This document shows positions 1 to 9,933 of a DNA stretch of 9,933 bases, one piece after another. Made by a program: the position numbers and the translations under genes. This DNA is from a virus (lineage: Duplodnaviria; Heunggongvirae; Uroviricota; Caudoviricetes). The notes beneath the pieces were generated by a model. It was not told where the DNA came from. It saw nothing but the letters and a program-made list of their open reading frames with translations, and did not search any database. The DNA lies in IMG/VR virus record IMGVR_UViG_2634166457_000012, positions 1-9,933 of that record; one strand, written 5' to 3'. Within the stretch, counting starts at the first letter, position 1. Each line of letters begins with the position of its first letter.

Positions 1-385
1 AAATTTGATCCAGTAAGCACGGTTTTGGCCTTTTCGCCATTCTGTTGGCTCGGTTATTAGCATCAACAGCTTTGTAATAGCGTCTGCCCCGATTACGCTG
101 AACTTCACGTGAGATCGTCGAAGGACTGCGATTCAGCGCAGTAGCTATCGCACGAATGCTCATTTTGGCTGACAAACCAGCTCGTATCTCCTCGCGCTCA
201 GACAGTGTCAGGTGAGCTACAGCCCGCTTACGCTCATGGGGTTTTATGCCGCCAGTATCCCTTAACATAGTGAAGATCGTTCCGGGTTTTGAACCCAGGA
301 TATTCGCTATTTCACTGAAGCCTGTTCCGTTCTTCCATAGTTCAAAAACAGAGGCTTTTTCCTCTGCTGTAAATGTTCGTCTCAT
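1..385 (-). CDS. insI: IS30 transposase, N-terminal ~128 codons (C-terminus outside window)
   Basis: Minus-strand ATG at 385..383 preceded by GGAGG. Translation begins MRRTFTAEEKASVFELWKNGTGFSEIANILGSKPGTIFTMLRDTGG..., the helix-turn-helix N-terminus of IS30 transposase. Not in the ORF track because the frame runs off the window edge. Confidence 0.85.
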   Translation of the reverse strand, partial: MRRTFTAEEKASVFELWKNGTGFSEIANILGSKPGTIFTMLRDTGGIKPHERKRAVAHLTLSEREEIRAGLSAKMSIRAIATALNRSPSTISREVQRNRGRRYYKAVDANNRANRMAKRPKPCLLDQI

Positions 386-447
386 TCAAAAAACCTCCGC
401 AACCCCATGTTTTCACATAACTGTTGCGTTGACCAATTGAATCTACA
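1..447 (-). mobile_element. IS30 insertion sequence, partial (terminal inverted repeat plus 5' part of transposase gene; remainder lies beyond the window start)
   Basis: Reverse complement of 447..421 reads TGTAGATTCAATTGGTCAACGCAACAG, which I recognise as the IS30 terminal inverted repeat. It is followed by a GGAGG RBS and the transposase ATG. The element ends exactly where the gpD-like reading frame is broken (447/448). Confidence 0.88.
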
Positions 448-714
448 AGTGCCTTTTTCTGTCAGCGGTTCTCCTTTCCAGCCAATGAGAACCGTCAGGC
501 GCGCGCCCCGTGGCGGTAGCTGCAACTGACCATCCGCATCATCCAGCGTGATGGTGAGCTGGTCCGCCTCAAATCCTCGGTTGTCGGTCAGTGACAGGCT
601 CATCAGGCGCTCTGCCACGCCTGACAGCGTTTTACCCTCCGCAAGAATATCAAAATCCGGCATTTTCACGGGGTCTGTGCCCTGACTGAGCAATTGCATG
701 GTTGTGTCGGTCAT
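448..714 (-). pseudogene. D: P2 gpD-like tail/baseplate hub protein (late control gene D family), 5' fragment of ~89 codons truncated by IS30
   Basis: Minus-strand ATG at 714..712 with AGGGAGG RBS 6 nt upstream. Translation MTDTTMQLLSQGTDPVKMPDFDILAEGKTLSGVAERLMSLSLTDNRGFEADQLTITLDDADGQLQLPPRGARLTVLIGWKG carries the LTDNRGFEADQL-I-LDD motif typical of the phage gpD N-terminus. The frame reads into the IS30 end and stops at a TGA overlapping the transposase ATG. The track ORF 382..846 is this frame, over-extended upstream and read through into IS30. Confidence 0.6.
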
Positions 715-871
715 CTGTTCCCTCCCTGTGCGGCATGGTCGCATGTGCGTGCGGAGGGGGTTACTGCTTTTTGTTGTCGCCGTGGCGGGAGAATAGCGCA
801 GGGGTGAGATTACGCGCGTGGTGGGTGATGATTGTTGCTGAATCATTTAACGGATACAAGGGGCTGAAGCT
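715..871. promoter_or_regulatory. Divergent intergenic region between gpD-like (minus) and sheath FI (plus); presumed to carry promoters for both
   Basis: 157-bp non-coding gap between two divergently oriented starts, each with a good RBS. No confident -35/-10 pair and no P2 Ogr-type TGT-N12-ACA dyad found by eye. Confidence 0.3.
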
Positions 872-2056
872 ATGAGTGAAACTCGTTTTCATGGTGCCCG
901 TGTTACGGAAAATACCGACCTGGTAACAGCGATTAACGATGTTGATTCCAGCGTTATCGGTATCGTGGCAACGGCGGATGATGCGGACGCGAAGCTGTTC
1001 CCGCTGAACAAGCCCACACTGCTGACCCGCGTCAATGACGTGCTGGGAAAATGCGGGACAACGGGGACGCTTTATCGTGCGCTTAAGGCCATCGCAGACC
1101 AGGTGAGCACAAAGGTGATCGTCGTTCGCGTGGCTGAACACAAAGAAGAAGACGGAAAGACGCAGGATCAACTGGTTATCGGTGGTTCTGAGGATGATGG
1201 CAGCTATACGGGGATGTATGCGCTGCTTGTTGCAGAGCAGGATGAAAGCATCGGATACCGTCCGCGTATTCTGGCCGCGCCGGAGCTGGACACGGAGGCG
1301 GTGACAAAATCCCTGTGCGTGATTGCGGGTAAACTGCGCGCGTTTGTGTATGCCACATGTCATGGTTGTAACACGATGGCTGAGGCAATTACCTACCGCC
1401 AGAAATTCAACGAACGTGAGGTGATGCTCTTATGGCCGGACTTCATCGCCTACAACCCGAAAAGTGGCAAAAACGAAACGTTCCCCGCGCCTGCCTATGC
1501 GTGCGGCCTTCGTGCGTACATTGACCATGAGCAGGGCTGGCACAAATCACTGTCCAACGTTCCGGTTAAAAATGTGCTGGGGATGTCGAGGCATGTGTTC
1601 TGGTCGTTGCAGGCCGAAGACAGCGATGCCAACAGCCTCAATAATAAAGAAATCACGACCATTATTCGTCGCAACGGGTTCCGCTTCTGGGGCAACCGCA
1701 CACCGGAAACGAACGCCTACATCTTTGAGGTGTATACCCGAACCGCACAGGTGCTGGCTGATTCAATTGCGGAAGCGCAGTTTGAAACCATCGACAGTCC
1801 ACTGACGCCTGCGAATGTGAAGGATGTTATCAGTGCCATCAGGGCAAAACTGGATTCGCTGGTTACTGCCGGGAAACTGATTGGTGCGGAGTGCTGGTAT
1901 GACGTGGTGGATAACGGTACCACGAATTTACGTCAGGGACGTGTGCGTATTCGCTACAAATATACGCCTGTTCCCCCGCTGGAAGACATGGAGCTTTACC
2001 AGACGTTTACTGATGAATTCTTTGGTCCCGCATTTGCGGTGCTGGGAGGTGCCTGA
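872..2056 (+). CDS. FI: Contractile tail sheath protein (P2 gpFI family), 394 aa
   Basis: ATG 872 with AGGGG RBS ~8 nt upstream. Length and sequence character match myovirus sheath proteins of the P2 FI type (P2 FI is ~396 aa). Followed immediately by tube, chaperone, tape measure and gpU in the canonical order. Confidence 0.88.
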   Translation: MSETRFHGARVTENTDLVTAINDVDSSVIGIVATADDADAKLFPLNKPTLLTRVNDVLGKCGTTGTLYRALKAIADQVSTKVIVVRVAEHKEEDGKTQDQLVIGGSEDDGSYTGMYALLVAEQDESIGYRPRILAAPELDTEAVTKSLCVIAGKLRAFVYATCHGCNTMAEAITYRQKFNEREVMLLWPDFIAYNPKSGKNETFPAPAYACGLRAYIDHEQGWHKSLSNVPVKNVLGMSRHVFWSLQAEDSDANSLNNKEITTIIRRNGFRFWGNRTPETNAYIFEVYTRTAQVLADSIAEAQFETIDSPLTPANVKDVISAIRAKLDSLVTAGKLIGAECWYDVVDNGTTNLRQGRVRIRYKYTPVPPLEDMELYQTFTDEFFGPAFAVLGGA

Positions 2057-2568
2057 TGGCTGTACCAAAACATCTTCGCTTTTTTACGTTGTTTGTGGAT
2101 GGTGAAAACGAAGTGGGTAAAGTGACATCCGTCACGCCGCCCAAACTGACGCGCAAAACCGACAGCTATCGTGGTGGTGGCATGATGGGGGCGGTAAGTA
2201 TTGATCTCGGTCTGGACGACTCCGCGCTTGATGCGAGTTTTGTCATGGGGGGAGCTGTTCGTGCGCTGTTCCTTAAATATGGTGGCACGATTGACGGCAC
2301 GCTGCTGCGTTTTGCGGGTGAATACTACACCGATGCAGAAAGCGATCTGTATGAAATCGAGATGCGTGGGCGTGTGACGGAAATTGATATGGGGGAAGCC
2401 AAACAGGGCGAAGCCACATCACACACTTACGCTGTCAAAAACACCTACTACAAGCTGAGCGTTAACGATCGCCCGCTGTGGGAAATCGACCTGTTGAACC
2501 ACATCTACCGGAAGGACGGCAAGGACATTGTGCCTGACCGTATCCGTTCCGCGCTTGGGCTTGGCTGA
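2056..2568 (+). CDS. FII: Tail tube protein (P2 gpFII family), 170 aa
   Basis: ATG 2056 overlaps the FI stop (TGATG) and is preceded by GGGAGGTG. Size matches P2 FII (~172 aa) and it sits directly after the sheath gene. Confidence 0.88.
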   Translation: MAVPKHLRFFTLFVDGENEVGKVTSVTPPKLTRKTDSYRGGGMMGAVSIDLGLDDSALDASFVMGGAVRALFLKYGGTIDGTLLRFAGEYYTDAESDLYEIEMRGRVTEIDMGEAKQGEATSHTYAVKNTYYKLSVNDRPLWEIDLLNHIYRKDGKDIVPDRIRSALGLG

Positions 2569-2623
2569 TAAGTAATATGCAGGCGGCGCAGTGCGTCGCC
2601 TCTGACTGAAAAGGAGACAACTG

Positions 2624-2998
2624 ATGAAAGACATCGATACTGAAACCCGGAATAACACCGTGGCGGATGATGTGACGGCAGGTGAGGATATGGCTGTCGA
2701 ACGTGGCGTAAAACTGACCCGACCAATTGAGCGTGGTGGCGAAAAAATCACGTATGTGGAGATCACCGGGGCTATTGAGCAGGCTGGATCCCTGCGTGGT
2801 CTGTCGCTGTCTGATGTGCTGAATCTGAAAGCGGATACCATGTTCACGCTGTTGCCTCGCGTGACCTCGCCACGACTGGATGAAGTGATGATTAAAAAAA
2901 TGTCGTCACGCGATTTTATTCAGTTGTGCGCTGTGGCTGTAAATTTTATGAGCGAGCCAGACTCTGGCGCGAAGAGCGTGCAGGAGACGGCAGCGTAA
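2624..2998 (+). CDS. E: Tail assembly chaperone (P2 gpE-like), 124 aa, zero-frame product
   Basis: ATG 2624 with AAGGAG RBS at 2611..2616. Small acidic protein between tube and tape measure. Its 3' part is overlapped by a -1 frame ORF that runs to 3162, the hallmark of the E/E' (lambda G/GT-like) chaperone pair. Confidence 0.78.
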   Translation: MKDIDTETRNNTVADDVTAGEDMAVERGVKLTRPIERGGEKITYVEITGAIEQAGSLRGLSLSDVLNLKADTMFTLLPRVTSPRLDEVMIKKMSSRDFIQLCAVAVNFMSEPDSGAKSVQETAA

Positions 2999-3162
2999 TC
3001 ACCCTGGTGTGCTTTGAGCACATCGAAGATCTGGTGGCGGATATTGCCGCCATTTTTAACTGGTCGCCCGCCGAAATCTTCATGATGACGCCCGGCGAAG
3101 TGGTTAGCTGGCGTGAGCGGGCGGCACTTCGCAGCGGGAATGCAGACAATGAAGACTCTTGA
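2624..3162 (+). CDS. Tail assembly chaperone frameshift product E+E' (programmed -1 frameshift, predicted ~179 aa)
   Basis: The -1 frame is open from 2896 (after TAA at 2893..2895) to TGA at 3160..3162 and overlaps the last ~100 nt of E. A heptamer fitting X_XXY_YYZ in the E frame lies at 2941..2947. The E' stop overlaps the start of T. Confidence 0.55.
2941..2947 (+). other. Candidate -1 slippery heptamer A_AAT_TTT for the E/E' frameshift
   Basis: E-frame codons AAT(2942..2944) and TTT(2945..2947) preceded by A2941. A small hairpin GCCAG-ACT-CTGGC (2956..2968) lies 8 nt downstream. An alternative site is the A7 run at 2894..2900 (T_AAA_AAA), which is non-canonical. Confidence 0.4.
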
Positions 3163-5956
3163 CATCCGGGTCGCTTTCAGCGCCGTTGACAGGCTGACCC
3201 GGCCTGCCGAAAACGCCCGCCGCCTGATGGGGCAGTTTGGTGACTCCATCCAGCGAACGCAGGGGGCGATCAAAAATCTCGAGCGTCAGGCGCGTTCATT
3301 TGAGCGCGCCCGTGACGCTGTCAGTAAAGCGGATGCTGGCGTATTGAAAGCACGACGCCAGCTTAACGCCCTTAATCAGTTACAACGCACGGGTACAGTG
3401 CTCAGCGAAAAACAACAAAAGCTGATGCAGCAGTTAAGCACCCGGCTTGAACGCCTGAATGAATCGCGCACACGGGAAATTCAGAAAATGCGGGAACTTG
3501 GCGGAGAGCTGAAACGCCACGGCATTTCCCTGACAGGCAGCGATAACACCATCCAGCAGGCCATCAGACGCACCGAACAGTACAACAACCAGCTTGAACG
3601 CGAACGGCAGGCGCTTGCGCGTGTAACGCGGGCGCGTGAGCGGTATTCGCGCGCGCAGGAAACAGAGGGAAAACTGAAAACAGGTGGTGCACTGGCAATT
3701 GGTGCGGCAGCGGCGGGCGGCTATGCTGCCGGGCGTTTTTTGCAGCCTGCGATCGGGTTCGGCAAAGAGATGTCCTGCGTTCAGGCACTGACGCGAATCG
3801 ACAAAAACAGCCCGCAGTTTAAGGCGCTGCGTGAGCAGGCGTTAAAACTTGGCTCTGAAACACAGTTTACTGCGAGTGATGCCGCCAGTGGGCAGAGCTT
3901 TCTGGCAATGGCTGGTTTTACTCCTCAGGCCATTCAGGCCGCATTGCCCGGTGTTCTTAATATGGCGCTGGCAGGTGGCGTCGAACTCGGCGAGACGGCT
4001 GATATAGGCTCCAATATCCTCACACAGTTCAACCTGACAGCCGATCAAATGGACCGGGTTGGCGATACGCTGACAGCAGCATTCACCCGGACCAATACTG
4101 ATTTACGCGCGCTGGGCGAAACCATGAAGTATACCGGTCCGGTTGCCGCAAAACTTGGTATCAGTCTTGAAGAAGCGGCGGCCATGGCCGGGATGCTTGC
4201 CAATAATGGTCTTCGCGGAAGCGATGCGGGTACGGCCATGCGCGCAAGTCTGTCCCGCCTTGCATCACCGCCAAAAGCTGCGGCTGATGCACTGAAAGAG
4301 CTGGGGGTGTCAGTTGCTGACGCCAGAGGCAAAATGCGCCCAATGGAGGATGTGCTGCTTGATCTCTATAAGGCGACACAAAAATACGGACAGGTGGACC
4401 AGGTCTCCTTCTTCAAGGACATCGCCGGAGAAGAGGCGTTCGTTGGTTTGCAGACGCTTGTTGCGGCGGCTGGTTCAGGAGAACTGCAAAAACTGACCAG
4501 AGAATTGCAGGGGGCAAGGGGAGAGGCCGATCGCGTTGCAAAAGTAATGGCCGATAATCTTGATGGGGACCTGAAAAATCTCGACAGCGCATGGGAAGGT
4601 CTTCGTATTCGCATCAGTGATCTGGTTGACGGTCCGCTGCGTTCTGTCACGCAGTGGCTCACGCGGGTGCTTGAAAAAATCACCTCGCTGGCGCAGGCCC
4701 ATCCGGTACTGACGCGCCAGCTACTGATAGCAGGCGGTGCGTTGCTGGCAATGACTGCAACGATTGGCTCGTTGTCGCTGGTTATTGGGGTGCTTTACGG
4801 GAAGCTGGCCACCCTGCGTCTTGGTTTTGACATTCTTACCCGGTCAATGAATGTCGTCAGGGTGTTGCCTGCGCTGTGGGGAATGGTGACGGGTTCCGTT
4901 TCTTTACTGGGGGGCGCTATCGGGGCGTTGTTCAGTCCGGTTGGTCTTATTGTGGCTGCGCTCGCCGGAGCTGCCGTTCTCATCTGGAAATACTGGGATC
5001 CCATCAGGGCATTTTTTGCCGGGGTGTTCAGCGGGATTATGGAAAGGCTGACCCCGTTGCGCGAAACCTTTGAACGGTTTGGTCCTGTTTTTGACGCAAT
5101 CGGAAGCGGGATCAGCCAGGTGTTTAACTGGTTTAAATCGCTGCTGTCACCGATGGAGTCCAGCAAGGAAACGCTGGATAAATGTACCAGTGCTGGCGAG
5201 ATATTCGGTAACGTTCTTGGCGGTGCGTTACAGCTTGTTCTGACACCTGCAAAAATGTTGCTGGATACGCTGGCGTGGATACTTGAAAAGCTCGGTGTGC
5301 TTCCGGATGAAGCGGAAAGGGCGCGCAAGAAAATCGAAGACGCACAGCGTGCGGCCATTCTTCAGGATAAGGTTGCCTTGCTTCAGGGGGACCTGGCGAA
5401 AATCAATCCGCCGAAGCCTGTGGAAAATGGCAATGGTACCGGAGGTGATAAGCCCAAAGACAACAAACCGCTCACAGACAGCAATACCGGTACGCTACGC
5501 AGACTCAGCAAAATTGCTGATAACACAGGTAAGCTGGTTGATGAGACGAAAAAACGCATTGGCCCCGGCGATATTGTCTTTAAGAACCTGCCCCGCGCAC
5601 TTGCTGTTCGTGGGGAGTGGCAGGAGCGGAAGATTGCGCAGGTCAGTAAGCCTGCCCCCGCAATTAATATCACACCCGTGGTTCCGGCTCCGCTGTCTCC
5701 AGCGCTGGTCCCTGTTGTTGCGGCCAGCTCCCGCCCGGTGGCGGAGGCCATACGATCGCCAGTGGCATCAGTTCCTGCAACTTCCCGTAACCGGGAGCCT
5801 GTTGCCTCCGGATTTGGCGGTGAAATTCATGTTCATCTGCATAACGTTGTTACGCAGAATCCCCGCGAACTGGCGAAACTGGTCGGTGAAATGGTCAGGG
5901 CAGAATTGGAACGACGCGACCGTGCCGGACGTGGCAGTTTTTACGATAAAGATTGA
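3149..5956 (+). CDS. T: Tail tape measure protein (P2 gpT-like), ~935 aa
   Basis: Long ORF directly after E/E'. N-terminal third is coiled-coil-like and rich in R/E/Q/L. The middle has Gly/Ala-rich hydrophobic segments (e.g. LLIAGGALLAMTATIGSLSLVIGVLYG and GAIGALFSPVGLIVAALAGAAVLIW) typical of tape measure proteins. Start chosen at ATG 3149 (GGGA ~9 nt upstream); in-frame alternatives are ATG 3140 and GTG 3113 (the track start). Confidence 0.85.
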   Translation: MKTLDIRVAFSAVDRLTRPAENARRLMGQFGDSIQRTQGAIKNLERQARSFERARDAVSKADAGVLKARRQLNALNQLQRTGTVLSEKQQKLMQQLSTRLERLNESRTREIQKMRELGGELKRHGISLTGSDNTIQQAIRRTEQYNNQLERERQALARVTRARERYSRAQETEGKLKTGGALAIGAAAAGGYAAGRFLQPAIGFGKEMSCVQALTRIDKNSPQFKALREQALKLGSETQFTASDAASGQSFLAMAGFTPQAIQAALPGVLNMALAGGVELGETADIGSNILTQFNLTADQMDRVGDTLTAAFTRTNTDLRALGETMKYTGPVAAKLGISLEEAAAMAGMLANNGLRGSDAGTAMRASLSRLASPPKAAADALKELGVSVADARGKMRPMEDVLLDLYKATQKYGQVDQVSFFKDIAGEEAFVGLQTLVAAAGSGELQKLTRELQGARGEADRVAKVMADNLDGDLKNLDSAWEGLRIRISDLVDGPLRSVTQWLTRVLEKITSLAQAHPVLTRQLLIAGGALLAMTATIGSLSLVIGVLYGKLATLRLGFDILTRSMNVVRVLPALWGMVTGSVSLLGGAIGALFSPVGLIVAALAGAAVLIWKYWDPIRAFFAGVFSGIMERLTPLRETFERFGPVFDAIGSGISQVFNWFKSLLSPMESSKETLDKCTSAGEIFGNVLGGALQLVLTPAKMLLDTLAWILEKLGVLPDEAERARKKIEDAQRAAILQDKVALLQGDLAKINPPKPVENGNGTGGDKPKDNKPLTDSNTGTLRRLSKIADNTGKLVDETKKRIGPGDIVFKNLPRALAVRGEWQERKIAQVSKPAPAINITPVVPAPLSPALVPVVAASSRPVAEAIRSPVASVPATSRNREPVASGFGGEIHVHLHNVVTQNPRELAKLVGEMVRAELERRDRAGRGSFYDKD

Positions 5957-5962
5957 GGAGTC

Positions 5963-6457
5963 ATGGCCATGATGATGATCTACGGCATGTTTGTTTTTGA
6001 GTTGCGCACGTTGCCGCATCAGCAGTTACAGCAAAACAAAAGCTGGCGACATGTGAAAAATGAACGCGTTAACCGTTCGGCAAGCTGGCAGTATATCGGT
6101 GCAGGTGATGATCGCATCGTTCTTTCGGGTGTTCTTTATCCTGAGATTACAGGTGGCGAAGTGTCGCTGTCGTTGTTGACCACGCAGGCATATACAGGAC
6201 GCCCCTGGCCTCTGATTGATGGCGTCGGGCAGATTTACGGCATGTATGTACTGACTGAAACGAATACGACCCGCTCCGAGTTTGATCGCTACGGTAAGGC
6301 GAAAAAGATAGAATTTTCACTGACTCTTGAACGCTGTGATGAGGATTTGCGGGAGCGCCTGCAATCCTCATCGTTCAGCGATATGTTGTCCGGCTTCAAA
6401 GATAAGGTGACATCATCCCTTAACAGCGCGGCCAGCTCAGTTAAGGGGCTGCTCTGA
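5963..6457 (+). CDS. U: Tail protein gpU-like (P2 U family), ~162-164 aa
   Basis: Follows the tape measure by 6 nt. Size matches P2 gpU (~159 aa). GAGGAG at 5955..5960 is best spaced for the in-frame ATGs at 5969/5972, so the true start may be 6-9 nt downstream of the track start 5963. Confidence 0.8.
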   Translation: MAMMMIYGMFVFELRTLPHQQLQQNKSWRHVKNERVNRSASWQYIGAGDDRIVLSGVLYPEITGGEVSLSLLTTQAYTGRPWPLIDGVGQIYGMYVLTETNTTRSEFDRYGKAKKIEFSLTLERCDEDLRERLQSSSFSDMLSGFKDKVTSSLNSAASSVKGLL

Positions 6458-6467
6458 TTTAACGTAT

Positions 6468-6500
6468 GTCGCCAATTTCCTGATGAAGGTGACTGGCGAC
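6468..6500 (+). other. Inverted repeat GTCGCCA-N19-TGGCGAC just downstream of the gpU stop; possible weak terminator or processing hairpin
   Basis: Perfect 7-bp arms at 6468..6474 and 6494..6500, followed by TTGCTGTTGT. The long loop and poor U-tract make an intrinsic-terminator call weak. Confidence 0.25.
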
Positions 6501-6533
6501 TTGCTGTTGTATGTCCTTCTCAGAAAATTGTTT

Positions 6534-6562
6534 TTGAATAACAAATAACAGGATTTTATAAT
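6534..6562 (+). promoter_or_regulatory. Near-consensus sigma70 promoter for the acetyltransferase moron
   Basis: TTGAAT (6534..6539), 17-nt spacer, TATAAT (6557..6562). Predicted transcript start ~6569, about 45 nt upstream of the GTG start, in an AT-rich non-coding stretch. Confidence 0.55.
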
Positions 6563-6613
6563 CTCTTAACCTTATAACATGTGTGGTCTGAAATAATAAT
6601 TAAGGAGATTTTC

Positions 6614-7186
6614 GTGCTGTCTTACTTAATGGCAATTCACTTTGTTTTATTTGGGAACTCTACTAATTTAAAAAACTTCTGGAAACATGAAGTGATTCGG
6701 CGGAAACGTATGGATATCTGGAGGCTTTTAAGAGAGAAAAAGCAGCGTAACCGGAATTTCCTGTTCTGGTGGCGGTTGGCTAACGAAATGTATATTAATG
6801 GTAATAAATCACATAAGAAAGCAGCCAAAAAGTTAAACAGTAAAATAATTAACAAATTTGGTTGTGAAATAGGATTGGGAGCAAATATTGGAAAAGGGTT
6901 AACAATTCCCCATCATGCTGGAATTGTTGTTCATTTTGCTGTTGATGCGGGTGAAAATCTGGTATTACGACAGAATACTACCATTGGACAGATAGATGGT
7001 GACATGCCTGGTTCAAGAGTGAAAATTGGTAGTAACGTTGATATCGGAGCTAATTGTTGCATCATTGGATTATCACGTAAAATTGGGGATAATGTAAAAA
7101 TAGGTGCAATGTCTTTTATAAATAAAGATATACCATCAAACTGCACATATATAACTAAAAAGAGTGGTGTTGTATTGTATAAATAG
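6614..7186 (+). CDS. Hexapeptide-repeat (left-handed beta-helix) acetyltransferase, serine O-acetyltransferase (CysE/WcaB/NeuO-like) family; ~190 aa; AT-rich moron
   Basis: Translation contains the SAT-family signature GCEIGLGANIGKGLTIPHHAGIVVHFAVDAGENLVLRQNTTIG followed by further hexapeptide repeats (VKIGSNVDIGANCCIIG, KIGDNVKIGAMSFINKDIP). Start assigned to GTG 6614 because AAGGAG (6602..6607) lies 6 nt upstream; the track ATG 6581 has no RBS. Followed by a strong terminator. Confidence 0.72.
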   Translation: MLSYLMAIHFVLFGNSTNLKNFWKHEVIRRKRMDIWRLLREKKQRNRNFLFWWRLANEMYINGNKSHKKAAKKLNSKIINKFGCEIGLGANIGKGLTIPHHAGIVVHFAVDAGENLVLRQNTTIGQIDGDMPGSRVKIGSNVDIGANCCIIGLSRKIGDNVKIGAMSFINKDIPSNCTYITKKSGVVLYK

Positions 7187-7193
7187 AGTACAT

Positions 7194-7230
7194 AAAGCCA
7201 TCGATATTTCTGTCGATGGCTTTTTCTTTT
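7194..7230. terminator. Rho-independent terminator, shared by the convergent acetyltransferase (plus) and tfa (minus) transcripts
   Basis: Perfect stem AGCCATCGA (7196..7204) / TCGATGGCT (7213..7221) with 8-nt loop, then TTTTTCTTTT (7221..7230) on the plus strand. On the minus strand the same stem follows the tfa stop but has only a short U-tract (UUUAUG). Confidence 0.8.
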
Positions 7231-7808
7231 TATTGTGGGGCGACTGGCCACTCAACATCCGCTGCTACTGTTGTATCAACACGATTCAACAATACCCTAT
7301 ATGTCTTCCATGCAGCCAGTAACGATGCCTCTTCCTCCGTCGCAATATCCAAATCTACGGCATCCTGAAGTGGCGCAATATGCTCACTGGCTACCTGCAT
7401 CAGGCTGTTTTTTGTTTCTTCTGCCTCCCGTACCCGAAACAGTTTTTCTGCTTCTGCATCTTTCACCCAGGATGTGCCGTTCCACTTCTGACACTCTCCA
7501 TCCGGCGACAACCAGGTAACATTTTCCGGTAACGGACCGAGTTCAGAAATAAATAACGCGTCCCCTGATGCCACGTCATAAACCGTTTTACCCCGATGGT
7601 CTTCAACGAGATGCCACGATGCCTCATCACTGTTGAAAACAGCCACGAAGCCTGCCGGAATATCTGGTGGTGCAATATCGGTACTGTTTGCAGGCAGACC
7701 TGTATGAGGTGGAATGTATGCATCACCTTCCCCAATAAATTCATTAGTTCCGGCCAGCAGGTTATAAATTTTTATGGTCCGTGATTGTTCACTCATTCTG
7801 AAATCCAT
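7230..7808 (-). CDS. tfa: Tail fibre assembly protein (lambda Tfa / P2 gpG family), ~192 aa
   Basis: Translation ([97 protein letters not shown]...) is near-identical to phage lambda Tfa as I recall it. ATG 7808 with GAGGTG 5 nt upstream; the track start GTG 7814 is less likely. Confidence 0.9.
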
Positions 7809-7816
7809 GTTCACCT

Positions 7817-8719
7817 CTACTTAATATCAGAGACAGAATATTGTTTATTGAGCGTATGGGTGGGAGTACCAATAACGATGCTACTTCCGTGGCTATGTGC
7901 GCCAGAGGTGACATTACCTACGGGATTTTCTGGATTAATCCGGTGTATATGCGAACCAGGGCGAAAACGGTTATTAGCCTGATGTTGTATCAGTACATCA
8001 TCAGCCTGATGTTCAGGGTTAATACAGACTTGCCCGGAACGAGAGCAACACGTCCGATAATCGCCACATCCAATATATTTAGTATCCGCATAACGGCAAA
8101 CGGAATTACCCGGACAGTATGCATATGTGCCAAATACTGCCGACTGGCGAGATTGTGCGTATTCCCAGTTAATTGATTCTGTTTTTTTATTAAAGTTATC
8201 CCATGCCTGCTTCATCTGTCGGGCAACACTTTCAAACGGCACCTGACCACATCCGGCCCCCATTGCAGGGAATACCACTGTTTTTATTTTCATGTCTGTC
8301 GTTGCGTTTTTATTGTGTTGAAAGATGGCAAGCAGAGCGGCCCAGGTTGCGTTATATACAGCGTCTGTTCCGTCAATTGTCAACGGAACACGCATTGTTG
8401 GCGCATGTACCAGCCAGGGGTGATGATTATGCCCCGTTTCAATGACAAATGCAGAACCTACAGGCTGTTCGCCGAGATATTCACGAAGAATATGATTCTG
8501 AACGCGGGACTGTAACTGAGTACCGAAGAATGCGGTAATGGCGGCATCAACGCCACCATCCATCAAGCCGAAACTATTTGCCGCACTTACCATGCAGTCA
8601 AATTCTCTGATTGTTTCAAATGGCTTTCCGACAATATTCACACTATCTGCATTTGCAAATACCTGCTTAAATGCTTCAGCCATTTCTGTTACTGGTGCAG
8701 AAAGAATGAGCGTAATCAT
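7817..8719 (-). CDS. Macro-domain protein (predicted ADP-ribose-binding / ADP-ribosyl hydrolase) with Cys/His-rich C-terminal extension, 300 aa
   Basis: N-terminal ~180 aa carry macro-domain motifs in the correct order: [26 protein letters not shown] (compare VNAAN..L.GGGGVDGAIHRAAG), [25 protein letters not shown], and [22 protein letters not shown] (compare FPAISTGVYGYP). ATG 8719..8717 overlaps the stf stop (ATGA) with GAGG 5 nt upstream. Stop TAG 7819..7817 lies 8 nt before the tfa ATG. Coding call is strong; the functional call is from motif recognition only. Confidence 0.7.
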
Positions 8720-9933
8720 GCAAGCCTCACAATATAGTTAAATGCGATGTTTTTTACGGTGTTTTCTGCGTTACCCGTAGCGTTAACGGTGATGGTATGC
8801 CCGTGTGAACCTATCGCAACGGAGTGTGTGTGTGCGCCAATATTTACTGTGTGAGAGTGCCCCCCTGCGTTACTTGTTTTTCCAGTGCCAAGCCCTGAGT
8901 TATAACCAGCCGAAACACCATTACCAGCGCCAGTGTTGCCAACAGGAATATTGTGTGAATGATCCCCGGCGCTATTCGTGGTTTTAGTGCCATGGTTAAA
9001 TGAACTGGACGTCTTGGTGCCGTAGTCAAATGATGATGTGGTTTTTGTCCCCAAGTCCGTACTGGACGCGCTGGCACTGTGGGAGTGTGATTTAATGCCG
9101 TCCTGTTCCTGAGATAATACGGCCCGACCACTGGCGGGTTTGCCCTTAATCGTCCAGCCACGCATATCAGGGATCACACCAGACGGATAAGCGACTGCAA
9201 GCAGGGGGTAGACTGTTTTATCAAAAGTCTGCCCCTGCATAACGGTGTAGCCTGTAGGCACTGAATCAGAAGGCCACGGTATCGCCGCACCTACCGGAAA
9301 TGAATCTTGTGGCGTCCATGGTGTCCAGTCACCCGTTGAGTACTGGCTGCGGGTATAGCTTCTGGATGTGTCATACACATAGTAAATCTGTGTTATCCCG
9401 GCATTTTTAAGCACAACCAGTGTACCCGCAAAATTCTCCGGGTATTTCAGCGCTGCGCTTGTATTGGCATTCAATGGCTGATGGTACAGCCCCGGTGTTT
9501 TGTAATTATCCAGATTCTGATTTGCACCAATCTCAATACTCTGGCCGTTAAAAATATCCTGCGATGTAACATTGACATCATTGGCTAGTGATTTGCCATT
9601 AACCTTACGTCCAGAGGGCACACGCCCGTTTGCATTGTCATTAGCGGCTTTCACCGCTTTCGGAGTCGCGGCAAGCGTTTCAGAATCACTGTTAGTGACG
9701 CTACTGAGCTGGACTATTCCTTTTCGTGCCGTCGTGGCGTCCTGTGCGGTATATTTCCCGTTAGCAAGGTCATAGGCTGCCTTTACCGCCTTTGGTGTTG
9801 CCGCCAGCGTTTCTGAATCGCTGTTGGTGGCGCTACTGAGCTGGACTATTCCTTTTCGTGCCGTCGTGGCGTCCTGAGCGGTATATTTCCCGTTAGCAAG
9901 GTCATATGTTGCCTTTACCGCCTTTGGTGTTGC
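8716..9933 (-). CDS. stf: Side tail fibre protein (lambda Stf-like), C-terminal ~405 codons; N-terminus lies beyond the window end
   Basis: Frame is open to the window edge with no start codon. Contains 44-aa tandem repeats [34 protein letters not shown](A/V)TNSDSETLA characteristic of enterobacterial phage tail fibres. The His-rich C-terminus [28 protein letters not shown]...[11 protein letters not shown] matches the lambda Stf tip. The track ORF 8716..9654 is the same frame cut at an internal GTG. Confidence 0.9.
9655..9933 (-). repeat. Tandem direct repeats, period 132 bp (44 codons), at least 2 copies in window, within the stf coding region
   Basis: GCTACTGAGCTGGACTATTCC occurs at 9700 and again at 9832; GCCTTTACCGCCTTTGGTGTTGC at 9779 and 9911. 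Copies are near-identical over ~90 bp, and the copy nearest the C-terminal part is diverged at one end. Confidence 0.85.

Follow-up and report, generated by a model that had tools for sequence, protein, structure and literature searches.

A tandem array of PF03406 units in the tail-fibre gene of a P2-like Escherichia coli prophage: variation in unit number and a likely junction for tip exchange

At its right end the window (the whole 9,933-nucleotide stretch of viral DNA analysed here) enters a tail-fibre gene that carries a tandem array of 132-bp units encoding the PF03406 motif, and the number of these units is polymorphic between near-identical prophages. We think it very probable that pairing out of register within the array changes the number of units, and that the conserved unit DNA serves as the junction at which fibre tips are swapped. 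The array is placed between a gpH-type N-terminal domain for baseplate attachment and a receptor-binding tip that resembles lambda Stf. Neighbouring units, which have long near-identical stretches in common, would pair out of register, and either unequal homologous exchange or replication slippage could then add or remove whole units; since the units are 132 bp long, in frame and near-identical, such gains and losses would leave the protein intact. Natural alleles of three, four and five units would be the outcome of this pairing. The same DNA would offer homology with the fibre genes of otherwise unrelated phages, and would for that reason form the upstream junction in exchanges of receptor-binding tips.

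The phenomenon is already known in kind and opens no new question. Mosaic fibre genes sharing the motif are known from comparisons of P2 H, lambda stf, Mu S and P1 S in the early 1990s, the motif itself is already curated in Pfam, and proteins identical to the one discussed here are already annotated at NCBI. In the literature on PF03406 we found no report of variation in its copy number, and literature searches with the TPKAVK motif string and with tandem-repeat and copy-number terms returned nothing relevant. The junctions mapped here show a catalogued motif that varies in copy number and bounds natural tip swaps on their upstream side.

The repeat array and its fibre gene

Tandem Repeats Finder reports one array only in the whole window, at 9648–9933, with a period of 132, 2.2 copies, 90% matches, no indels and a score of 472, and a direct-repeat search pairs 9625–9756 with 9757–9888 at 86%. 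Counted directly at an offset of 132, 144 of 162 positions are identical (88.9%) between 9640–9801 and its partner, and 104 of 109 (95.4%) between 9693–9801 and 9825–9933, a match that cannot be the product of chance. The initial annotation had described 132-bp tandem repeats that are near-identical over ~90 bp, and both points are borne out; its wording of long perfect repeats is an overstatement, the longest exact stretch being 46 nt in the window (9699–9744, repeated at 9831–9876) and 99 nt, at offset 132, in the full gene of the relative L007. The period equals 3 x 44 and corresponds to a coding unit of 44 aa, with the minus-strand frame open from 9933 to the stop codon (Table 1). Both the array and the 5′ part of the fibre gene continue past the right end of the window. 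The part of unit u2 inside the window has three nucleotide differences from the matching part of u3, and the head of the terminal unit u4 is identical to that of u3 at 63 of 78 positions; in u4 the repeat ends after TPKAVKAAN, and the tip module then begins. A plus-strand ORF at 9572–9775 is a shadow of the minus-strand fibre gene and was rejected as a gene, and Rfam has no RNA element in the repeat, its sole match (IS009) lying inside tfa.

Table 1. Features of the window, in order of position
Feature	Positions	Strand	Basis or remark
IS30 end	1–446	-	transposase N-terminus at about 1–386
gpD remnant (late-control / tail gene D)	447–714	-
Sheath, tube, E, T, U block	872–6457	+
Hexapeptide-repeat acyltransferase, between gpU and tfa	6581–7186	+	'serine (O-)acetyltransferase' annotation in relatives
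tfa, macro, fibre block	7230–9933	-
Tfa (gpG-like) tail fibre assembly chaperone	7230–7814	-	PF02413 Caudo_TAP, E = 3.8e-40; so annotated in relatives
Macro-domain protein, 300 aa, between fibre and tfa	7817–8719	-	PF01661, E = 1e-18; phrog_2613
P2 gpH-type tail-fibre gene, 3′ 1218 nt (405 codons + stop 8716–8718)	8716–9933	-	open frame, Pfam
His-x-His repeat region of tip	8785–9087	-	weak PF03335 match
Phage tail collar domain of tip region	9148–9291	-	PF07484, residues 215–262 of partial protein, E = 3.7e-9
Terminal unit u4, head only, 78 nt / 26 codons	9640–9717	-	homology to u3 head
Repeat unit u3, complete, 132 nt / 44 aa	9718–9849	-	best PF03406 stretch, model positions 1–41 of 42
Repeat unit u2, last 84 nt (28 codons), cut at window end	9850–9933	-	register from L007

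In the product of the window PF03406 (Phage_fiber_2) matches three stretches, scoring 151.6 bits (cut-off 22; E = 3.9e-45), and the other Pfam matches are the collar domain PF07484 and a weak PF03335 (His-x-His Phage_fiber). The product corresponds exactly to the last 405 of the 643 residues of an NCBI protein (P0088), whose gene is in L007 (E. coli GCA_013085585.1) and has its last 1352 nt identical to the window. The full fibre gene of the relatives encodes the gpH-type N-terminal domain PF12571, which in P0088 lies beyond the window. In three of the relatives (L002, L007 and L017) the baseplate genes come first in the order V-W-J-I-fibre-(macro)-tfa, and in the window itself fibre-macro-tfa is accompanied by sheath, tube, E, T and U; the element that hosts the array is a P2-like (Peduoviridae-type) E. 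coli prophage.

Comparison with P2 H and lambda stf, which the initial annotation had proposed, gives a gpH-like head and an Stf-like tip that meet at the array. By BLASTP, residues 7–254 of P0088 are 72% identical to residues 4–251 of P2 gpH (NC_001895, gene H), which has the same N-terminal baseplate-attachment domain, and as in the relatives J and I stand before the fibre gene of P2 and tfa after it. In both fibres the PF03406 units follow directly after ...HEQSRRHPDASLTAKG, the motif being present in about two copies in P2 H and in four in the relative closest to the window. Beyond its last TPKAVK, P2 H continues with TVMDETNKKAPLNSPALTG..., and both this sequence and the whole tip are unrelated to those of the window. 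The resemblance to lambda Stf (orf-401 / orf-314) and its homologues in lambdoid prophages is of a different kind. Here residues 449–643 of P0088 match residues 69–314 of orf-314 with 59% identity (BLASTP), both fibres have a C-terminal collar and His-x-His region with a Tfa gene downstream, and both have a PF03406 unit at the junction of modules, the similarity to orf-401 being limited to a single repeat unit. Lambda Stf, however, is the side fibre of a siphovirus, with an Ala/Ser-rich region in its N-terminal half and one unit, whereas the gene discussed here encodes a myovirus baseplate fibre with a gpH-type PF12571 domain and an array.

By these alignments the protein consists of a gpH-type head followed by a PF03406 array and an Stf-like tip. 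The initial annotation had placed the repeats in stf, and features of an Stf-type C-terminus are indeed present (the collar and His-x-His tip and the downstream Tfa gene; PF07484, PF02413), with the Stf-like stretch beginning at the collar domain. [quoted passage not shown]

The position of the units within the fibre, and what is generally known of such fibres, suggest that they would form a trimeric shaft, to which each further unit would add length, and the number of units may alter fibre length or host range. AlphaFold2, run on the 405-aa product as a monomer of a trimeric fibre and with an alignment of 13 rows, returned a mean pLDDT of 30.5 and a pTM of 0.17, values too low to be of use, and in a modelling paper of 2021 PF03406 was still counted among the families that had no reliable structure (PMC8078820). 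Sequence similarity leads to a single solved homologue, the S fibre of Mu, which has one unit (5yvq, 8ju3, 9ki1).

Unit number among near-identical prophages

The initial annotation had suggested that repeat number might vary and that copy number be compared among relatives, and the comparison finds three to five units. Among the best 120 protein clusters the fibres fall into length classes of 608, 652 and 696 aa, each exactly 44 aa longer than the one before, and have three, four or five TPKAVK motifs per protein; lengths of 622 and 710 aa belong to a sister fibre type whose tip differs slightly. When each protein was split into N-flank, repeat block and C-flank before pairs were compared, there were many pairs in which both flanks are 100% identical and the repeat blocks are of 110 and 154 aa. 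The DNA that flanks the 3-, 4- and 5-unit alleles is 99.8–99.9% identical. One example is the 3-unit locus L009, which outside the array differs from the 4-unit loci L011 and L012 at 0 of 534, 2–4 of 954 and 2–3 of 2200 nt; a second is the 4-unit locus L007, which differs from the 5-unit locus L008 at 7 of 2900, 1 of 534 and 5 of 2200 nt. In finished E. coli chromosomes a query that spans the array recovers 800 nt (four units) in six (H131–H136) and 668 nt (three units) in three (H137–H139), and each allele is found again in 85–87 independent contigs. The 5-unit alleles of the exact fibre type of the window come from draft assemblies only, in contigs of 37–313 kb, and five units in a finished chromosome are seen only in the 710-aa sister type. 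Unit number is therefore polymorphic, as measured among consensus assemblies of near-identical prophages from different strains, and the rate at which it changes may be low. For annotation this means that fibre proteins in length classes 44 aa apart are alleles and not different genes.

Variation by whole repeat periods is also reported between alleles of the repetitive shaft segments in the EHEC prophage fibre proteins EPclA/B, and in one architecture of this type a PF03406 ('Pf2') unit separates two collagen segments (PMC3368898). The EPclA/B repeats are collagen-like or coiled-coil, with periods of 3 and 7 residues rather than 44, and fold as a collagen triple helix or a coiled coil.

The units within an array differ in apparent age. 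Extending the sequence rightwards by way of L007, a step also proposed in the initial annotation, gives three full units and a partial terminal unit, and the genome of the window would have the same number, as judged from a relative that is only 98.7% identical to the window overall and is without its IS30 junction. In L007, u2 and u3 differ at 3 of 132 nt (dS 0.06, dN 0.01), and u1 differs from u2 and u3 at 18 and 15 of 132 nt respectively (dS 0.49 and 0.39, dN about 0.05–0.06). The head of u4 differs from the other units at about 15–19 of 75 nt, with a dS of about 1.9 and a dN of 0.02–0.12 (0.02–0.04 against u2 and u3, and 0.12 against u1). By dS, then, the first unit is older than the inner pair and the terminal unit older still, and the array is made up of old outer units that enclose an inner pair lately duplicated or homogenised. 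Apart from u1 against u4, dN between units is no higher than 0.06, and a dN this low beside the high dS of the old units points to strong purifying selection on the protein in all of them. Given the age and divergence of the outer units, an efficient substrate for recombination is offered by only part of the array. Ancient stable duplications, the contrary case set out in the initial annotation, would combine an invariant number with uniformly old synonymous divergence; what is found is a varying number and, between u2 and u3, the low dS given above.

Several arrays carry apparent footprints of the events that changed them. Among the 4-unit arrays, L007 has the composition A B B C and L011 has A G E C, and since different units were duplicated in the two they represent independent events; L013 likewise has two adjacent units that are identical. 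The 5-unit array of L008 reads u1, E, F, E, Z, with the two E units identical over 132 nt and an exact repeat of 269 nt at an offset of 264, and F is a chimera in which the head of Z (nt 1–50) is joined to the tail of u1 (nt 46–132). A single exchange out of register, between Z and u1 of a 3-unit parent, would account for this composition. At the chimera junction, however, only 5 nt of identity are shared, within surrounding sequence that is about 80% identical, and because such a junction is a poor substrate for RecA, slippage, template switching or a more complex history is at least as plausible as RecA-mediated crossing over. A footprint in the other direction is seen in L009, whose first unit resembles a fusion of the L011 u1 head with the L011 u2 tail and looks like the trace of a one-unit deletion. 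The initial annotation had attributed expansion and contraction to RecA-mediated or slipped-strand events; units have evidently been gained and apparently also lost, whereas the two routes are not separable from the footprints, and the enzymatic route would be one or the other.

Two other accounts of the differences in number deserve consideration. If the repeat were structurally stable, the differences could stem from collapse or expansion of 132-bp repeats during short-read assembly, and it is true that draft assemblies are the source of many homologous proteins and that the 696-aa alleles of this fibre type are confined to contigs of the sizes given above. Yet finished chromosomes include carriers of three units as well as of four, so assembly error is not a sufficient explanation, and each allele recurs in the many independent contigs counted above. 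Nor would a collapse or expansion error create the chimeric unit of the 5-unit allele, and the 15–18 nt by which u1 differs from u2 are enough for the placement of reads; we give this account almost no credence. The array could also be a true contingency locus, with frequent changes of number inside a single lysogen or phage population and with selection for the rapid tuning of fibre length or host range. The in-frame units would suit such a locus, as would exact repeats of 99–269 nt at most in some alleles, several independent duplications among only 12 loci, and the 12–15 units that other fibres reach. Each allele, however, is common to tens of independent assemblies, which indicates stability over epidemiological time, and the prophage of the window, with IS30 in gpD, is apparently defective, so that current selection on its fibre is absent. 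High-frequency switching of this kind strikes us as quite unlikely, and we are scarcely more inclined to see unit number as a quickly adjustable ruler that fits the reach of the fibre to the depth of O-antigen or capsule, with the homogeneity of the array selected for evolvability. Out-of-register pairing between units remains our preferred reading of the polymorphism.

Sharing of the unit and replacement of fibre tips

That the repeats are shared among unrelated phages, as the initial annotation had proposed, is confirmed by a tblastn search with a two-unit query, which matches 385 phage records, and in these the homologues carry a tail-fibre annotation. Among the phages matched are P2-like and lambdoid phages (HK629 and others for the latter), Stx-converting phages (933W among them), P1 (gene S), Mu and the Mu-like D108 (gene S), and Haemophilus phage HP2. 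An exhaustive HMMER scan of cluster representatives finds the unit in at least 1002 clusters at 50% identity (E ≤ 0.001), with 12–15 matched stretches per protein at most. Three proteins (P0121, P0122 and P0123) have an N-terminus that is not gpH-type and 5–6 copies of a compound super-repeat of 101 residues, in which a 44-aa PF03406 unit is followed by a 57-aa variant ending ...AGKAPSSHTHPWNQITGVPTASLTAKG; the motif matches number 11–12 per protein. The S fibres of Mu and P1 have one or two units, and in them ...DNAN... comes after the motif KGLVQLTSATDSPSETLAATAKAVKIAMDNANARL, as it does in the terminal unit of this array.

The array also coincides with the point at which related fibres part, and the role in tip exchange that the initial annotation had assigned to the repeats, as crossover points, gains support from two comparisons. 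In that with P2 H, nucleotide identity is 57–75% in the N-terminal domain, rises to 83–92% in the units and is then lost; homology to P2 gpH does not extend past the last unit, and the match at the C-terminus is to lambda Stf. The second is with MEI003 (L017, NZ_CP071263.1), which has the IS30-interrupted backbone in common with the window (96.3% over window positions 1–8842) and has a fibre of 719 aa with a different middle module. Against the fibre gene of L007, its identity is about 100% over nt 1–600, 78–97% across the array and below 40% beyond the terminal unit, and it rises again only over about the last 100 nt. The upstream boundary of the tip replacement in MEI003 therefore falls within the array.

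A different reading of these boundaries is that exchanges end at the array through selection on the folding or assembly of chimeric fibres and not through preferential crossing over, with the identity of the units a matter of constraint. The dN of 0.01–0.06 among units, beside the high dS of the old ones, would be expected from this, and the units held in common with P2 are 83–92% identical in nucleotides and not fully so; the identity of MEI003 also decays gradually across the array without a single sharp point. Gradual decay is, however, equally the expected trace of repeated exchanges and conversions within the array, and it is in the units that nucleotide identity to P2 peaks, giving the islands that homology-dependent exchange needs. 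Taken by itself, selection on chimeras seems to us a possible but rather doubtful cause of the boundaries; the two explanations are compatible with each other, and we favour exchange through the homology of the unit DNA.

Site-specific inversion provides a further means of varying fibre tips. In Mu S and P1 S tip variation is programmed by the invertible segments of Gin or Cin. Unlike these systems, the region here has neither invertase nor inverted repeats: no inverted repeats were found in 9000–9933, the ORFs neighbouring the fibre gene (macro, tfa and the hexapeptide acyltransferase) include no recombinase, and switching of the invertase type was rejected. For the engineering of P2-type fibres or tailocins, the units represent natural fusion points, with 2 to at least 5 units tolerated; two papers on P2 fibre engineering do not explicitly use the units as fusion points.

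The tip and the rest of the tail module

A second in-frame repeat-number polymorphism of the same fibre gene is present in the tip. A unit of 27 bp (encoding HTHTVGIGA) is missing from the window and from P0088, at ~8785–8860 on the minus strand, and is present in most relatives; the 643 aa of P0088 and the 652 aa of other proteins differ by this unit. In L002, Tandem Repeats Finder reports a period of 27 bp with 2.2 copies at 12229–12287. A direct-repeat search of 8700–9640 in the window found no further direct repeats, which fits the loss of one 27-bp unit.

The start of the macro-domain gene overlaps the stop of the fibre gene, and PHROG 14717 ('tail protein') combines this macro domain with the end of a His-x-His fibre. 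The gene is absent from the relative L013, and P2 has no counterpart of it between fibre and tfa; a PADLOC search returned only a marginal match to DarG. Within the tfa coding sequence, and wholly contained in it, is a full-length match of 191 bits to RF02111 (the IS009 candidate sRNA) at 7267–7465 on the minus strand, and this family, rather than describing a separate RNA, probably captures tfa sequence conserved among prophages.

At the left end, IS30 cuts gene D after about 89 codons, and because of this the prophage is probably unable to make tails. The IS30/D junction is common to one finished E. coli genome only, that of MEI003 described above; among other relatives D is intact in L007 and differently rearranged in L002.

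The hexapeptide acyltransferase gene occupies the position of the P2 Z/fun moron, where the isolated phage Chuche has a glycosyltransferase, and it is possibly a lysogenic-conversion gene. P2 has the order H G FI FII E T U D in one direction, and the window departs from this in that FI–U is inverted, so that the block is convergent with the fibre operon and divergent from D. The same inversion is found in every relative compared and in Chuche, and it is therefore a trait of the lineage and not damage.
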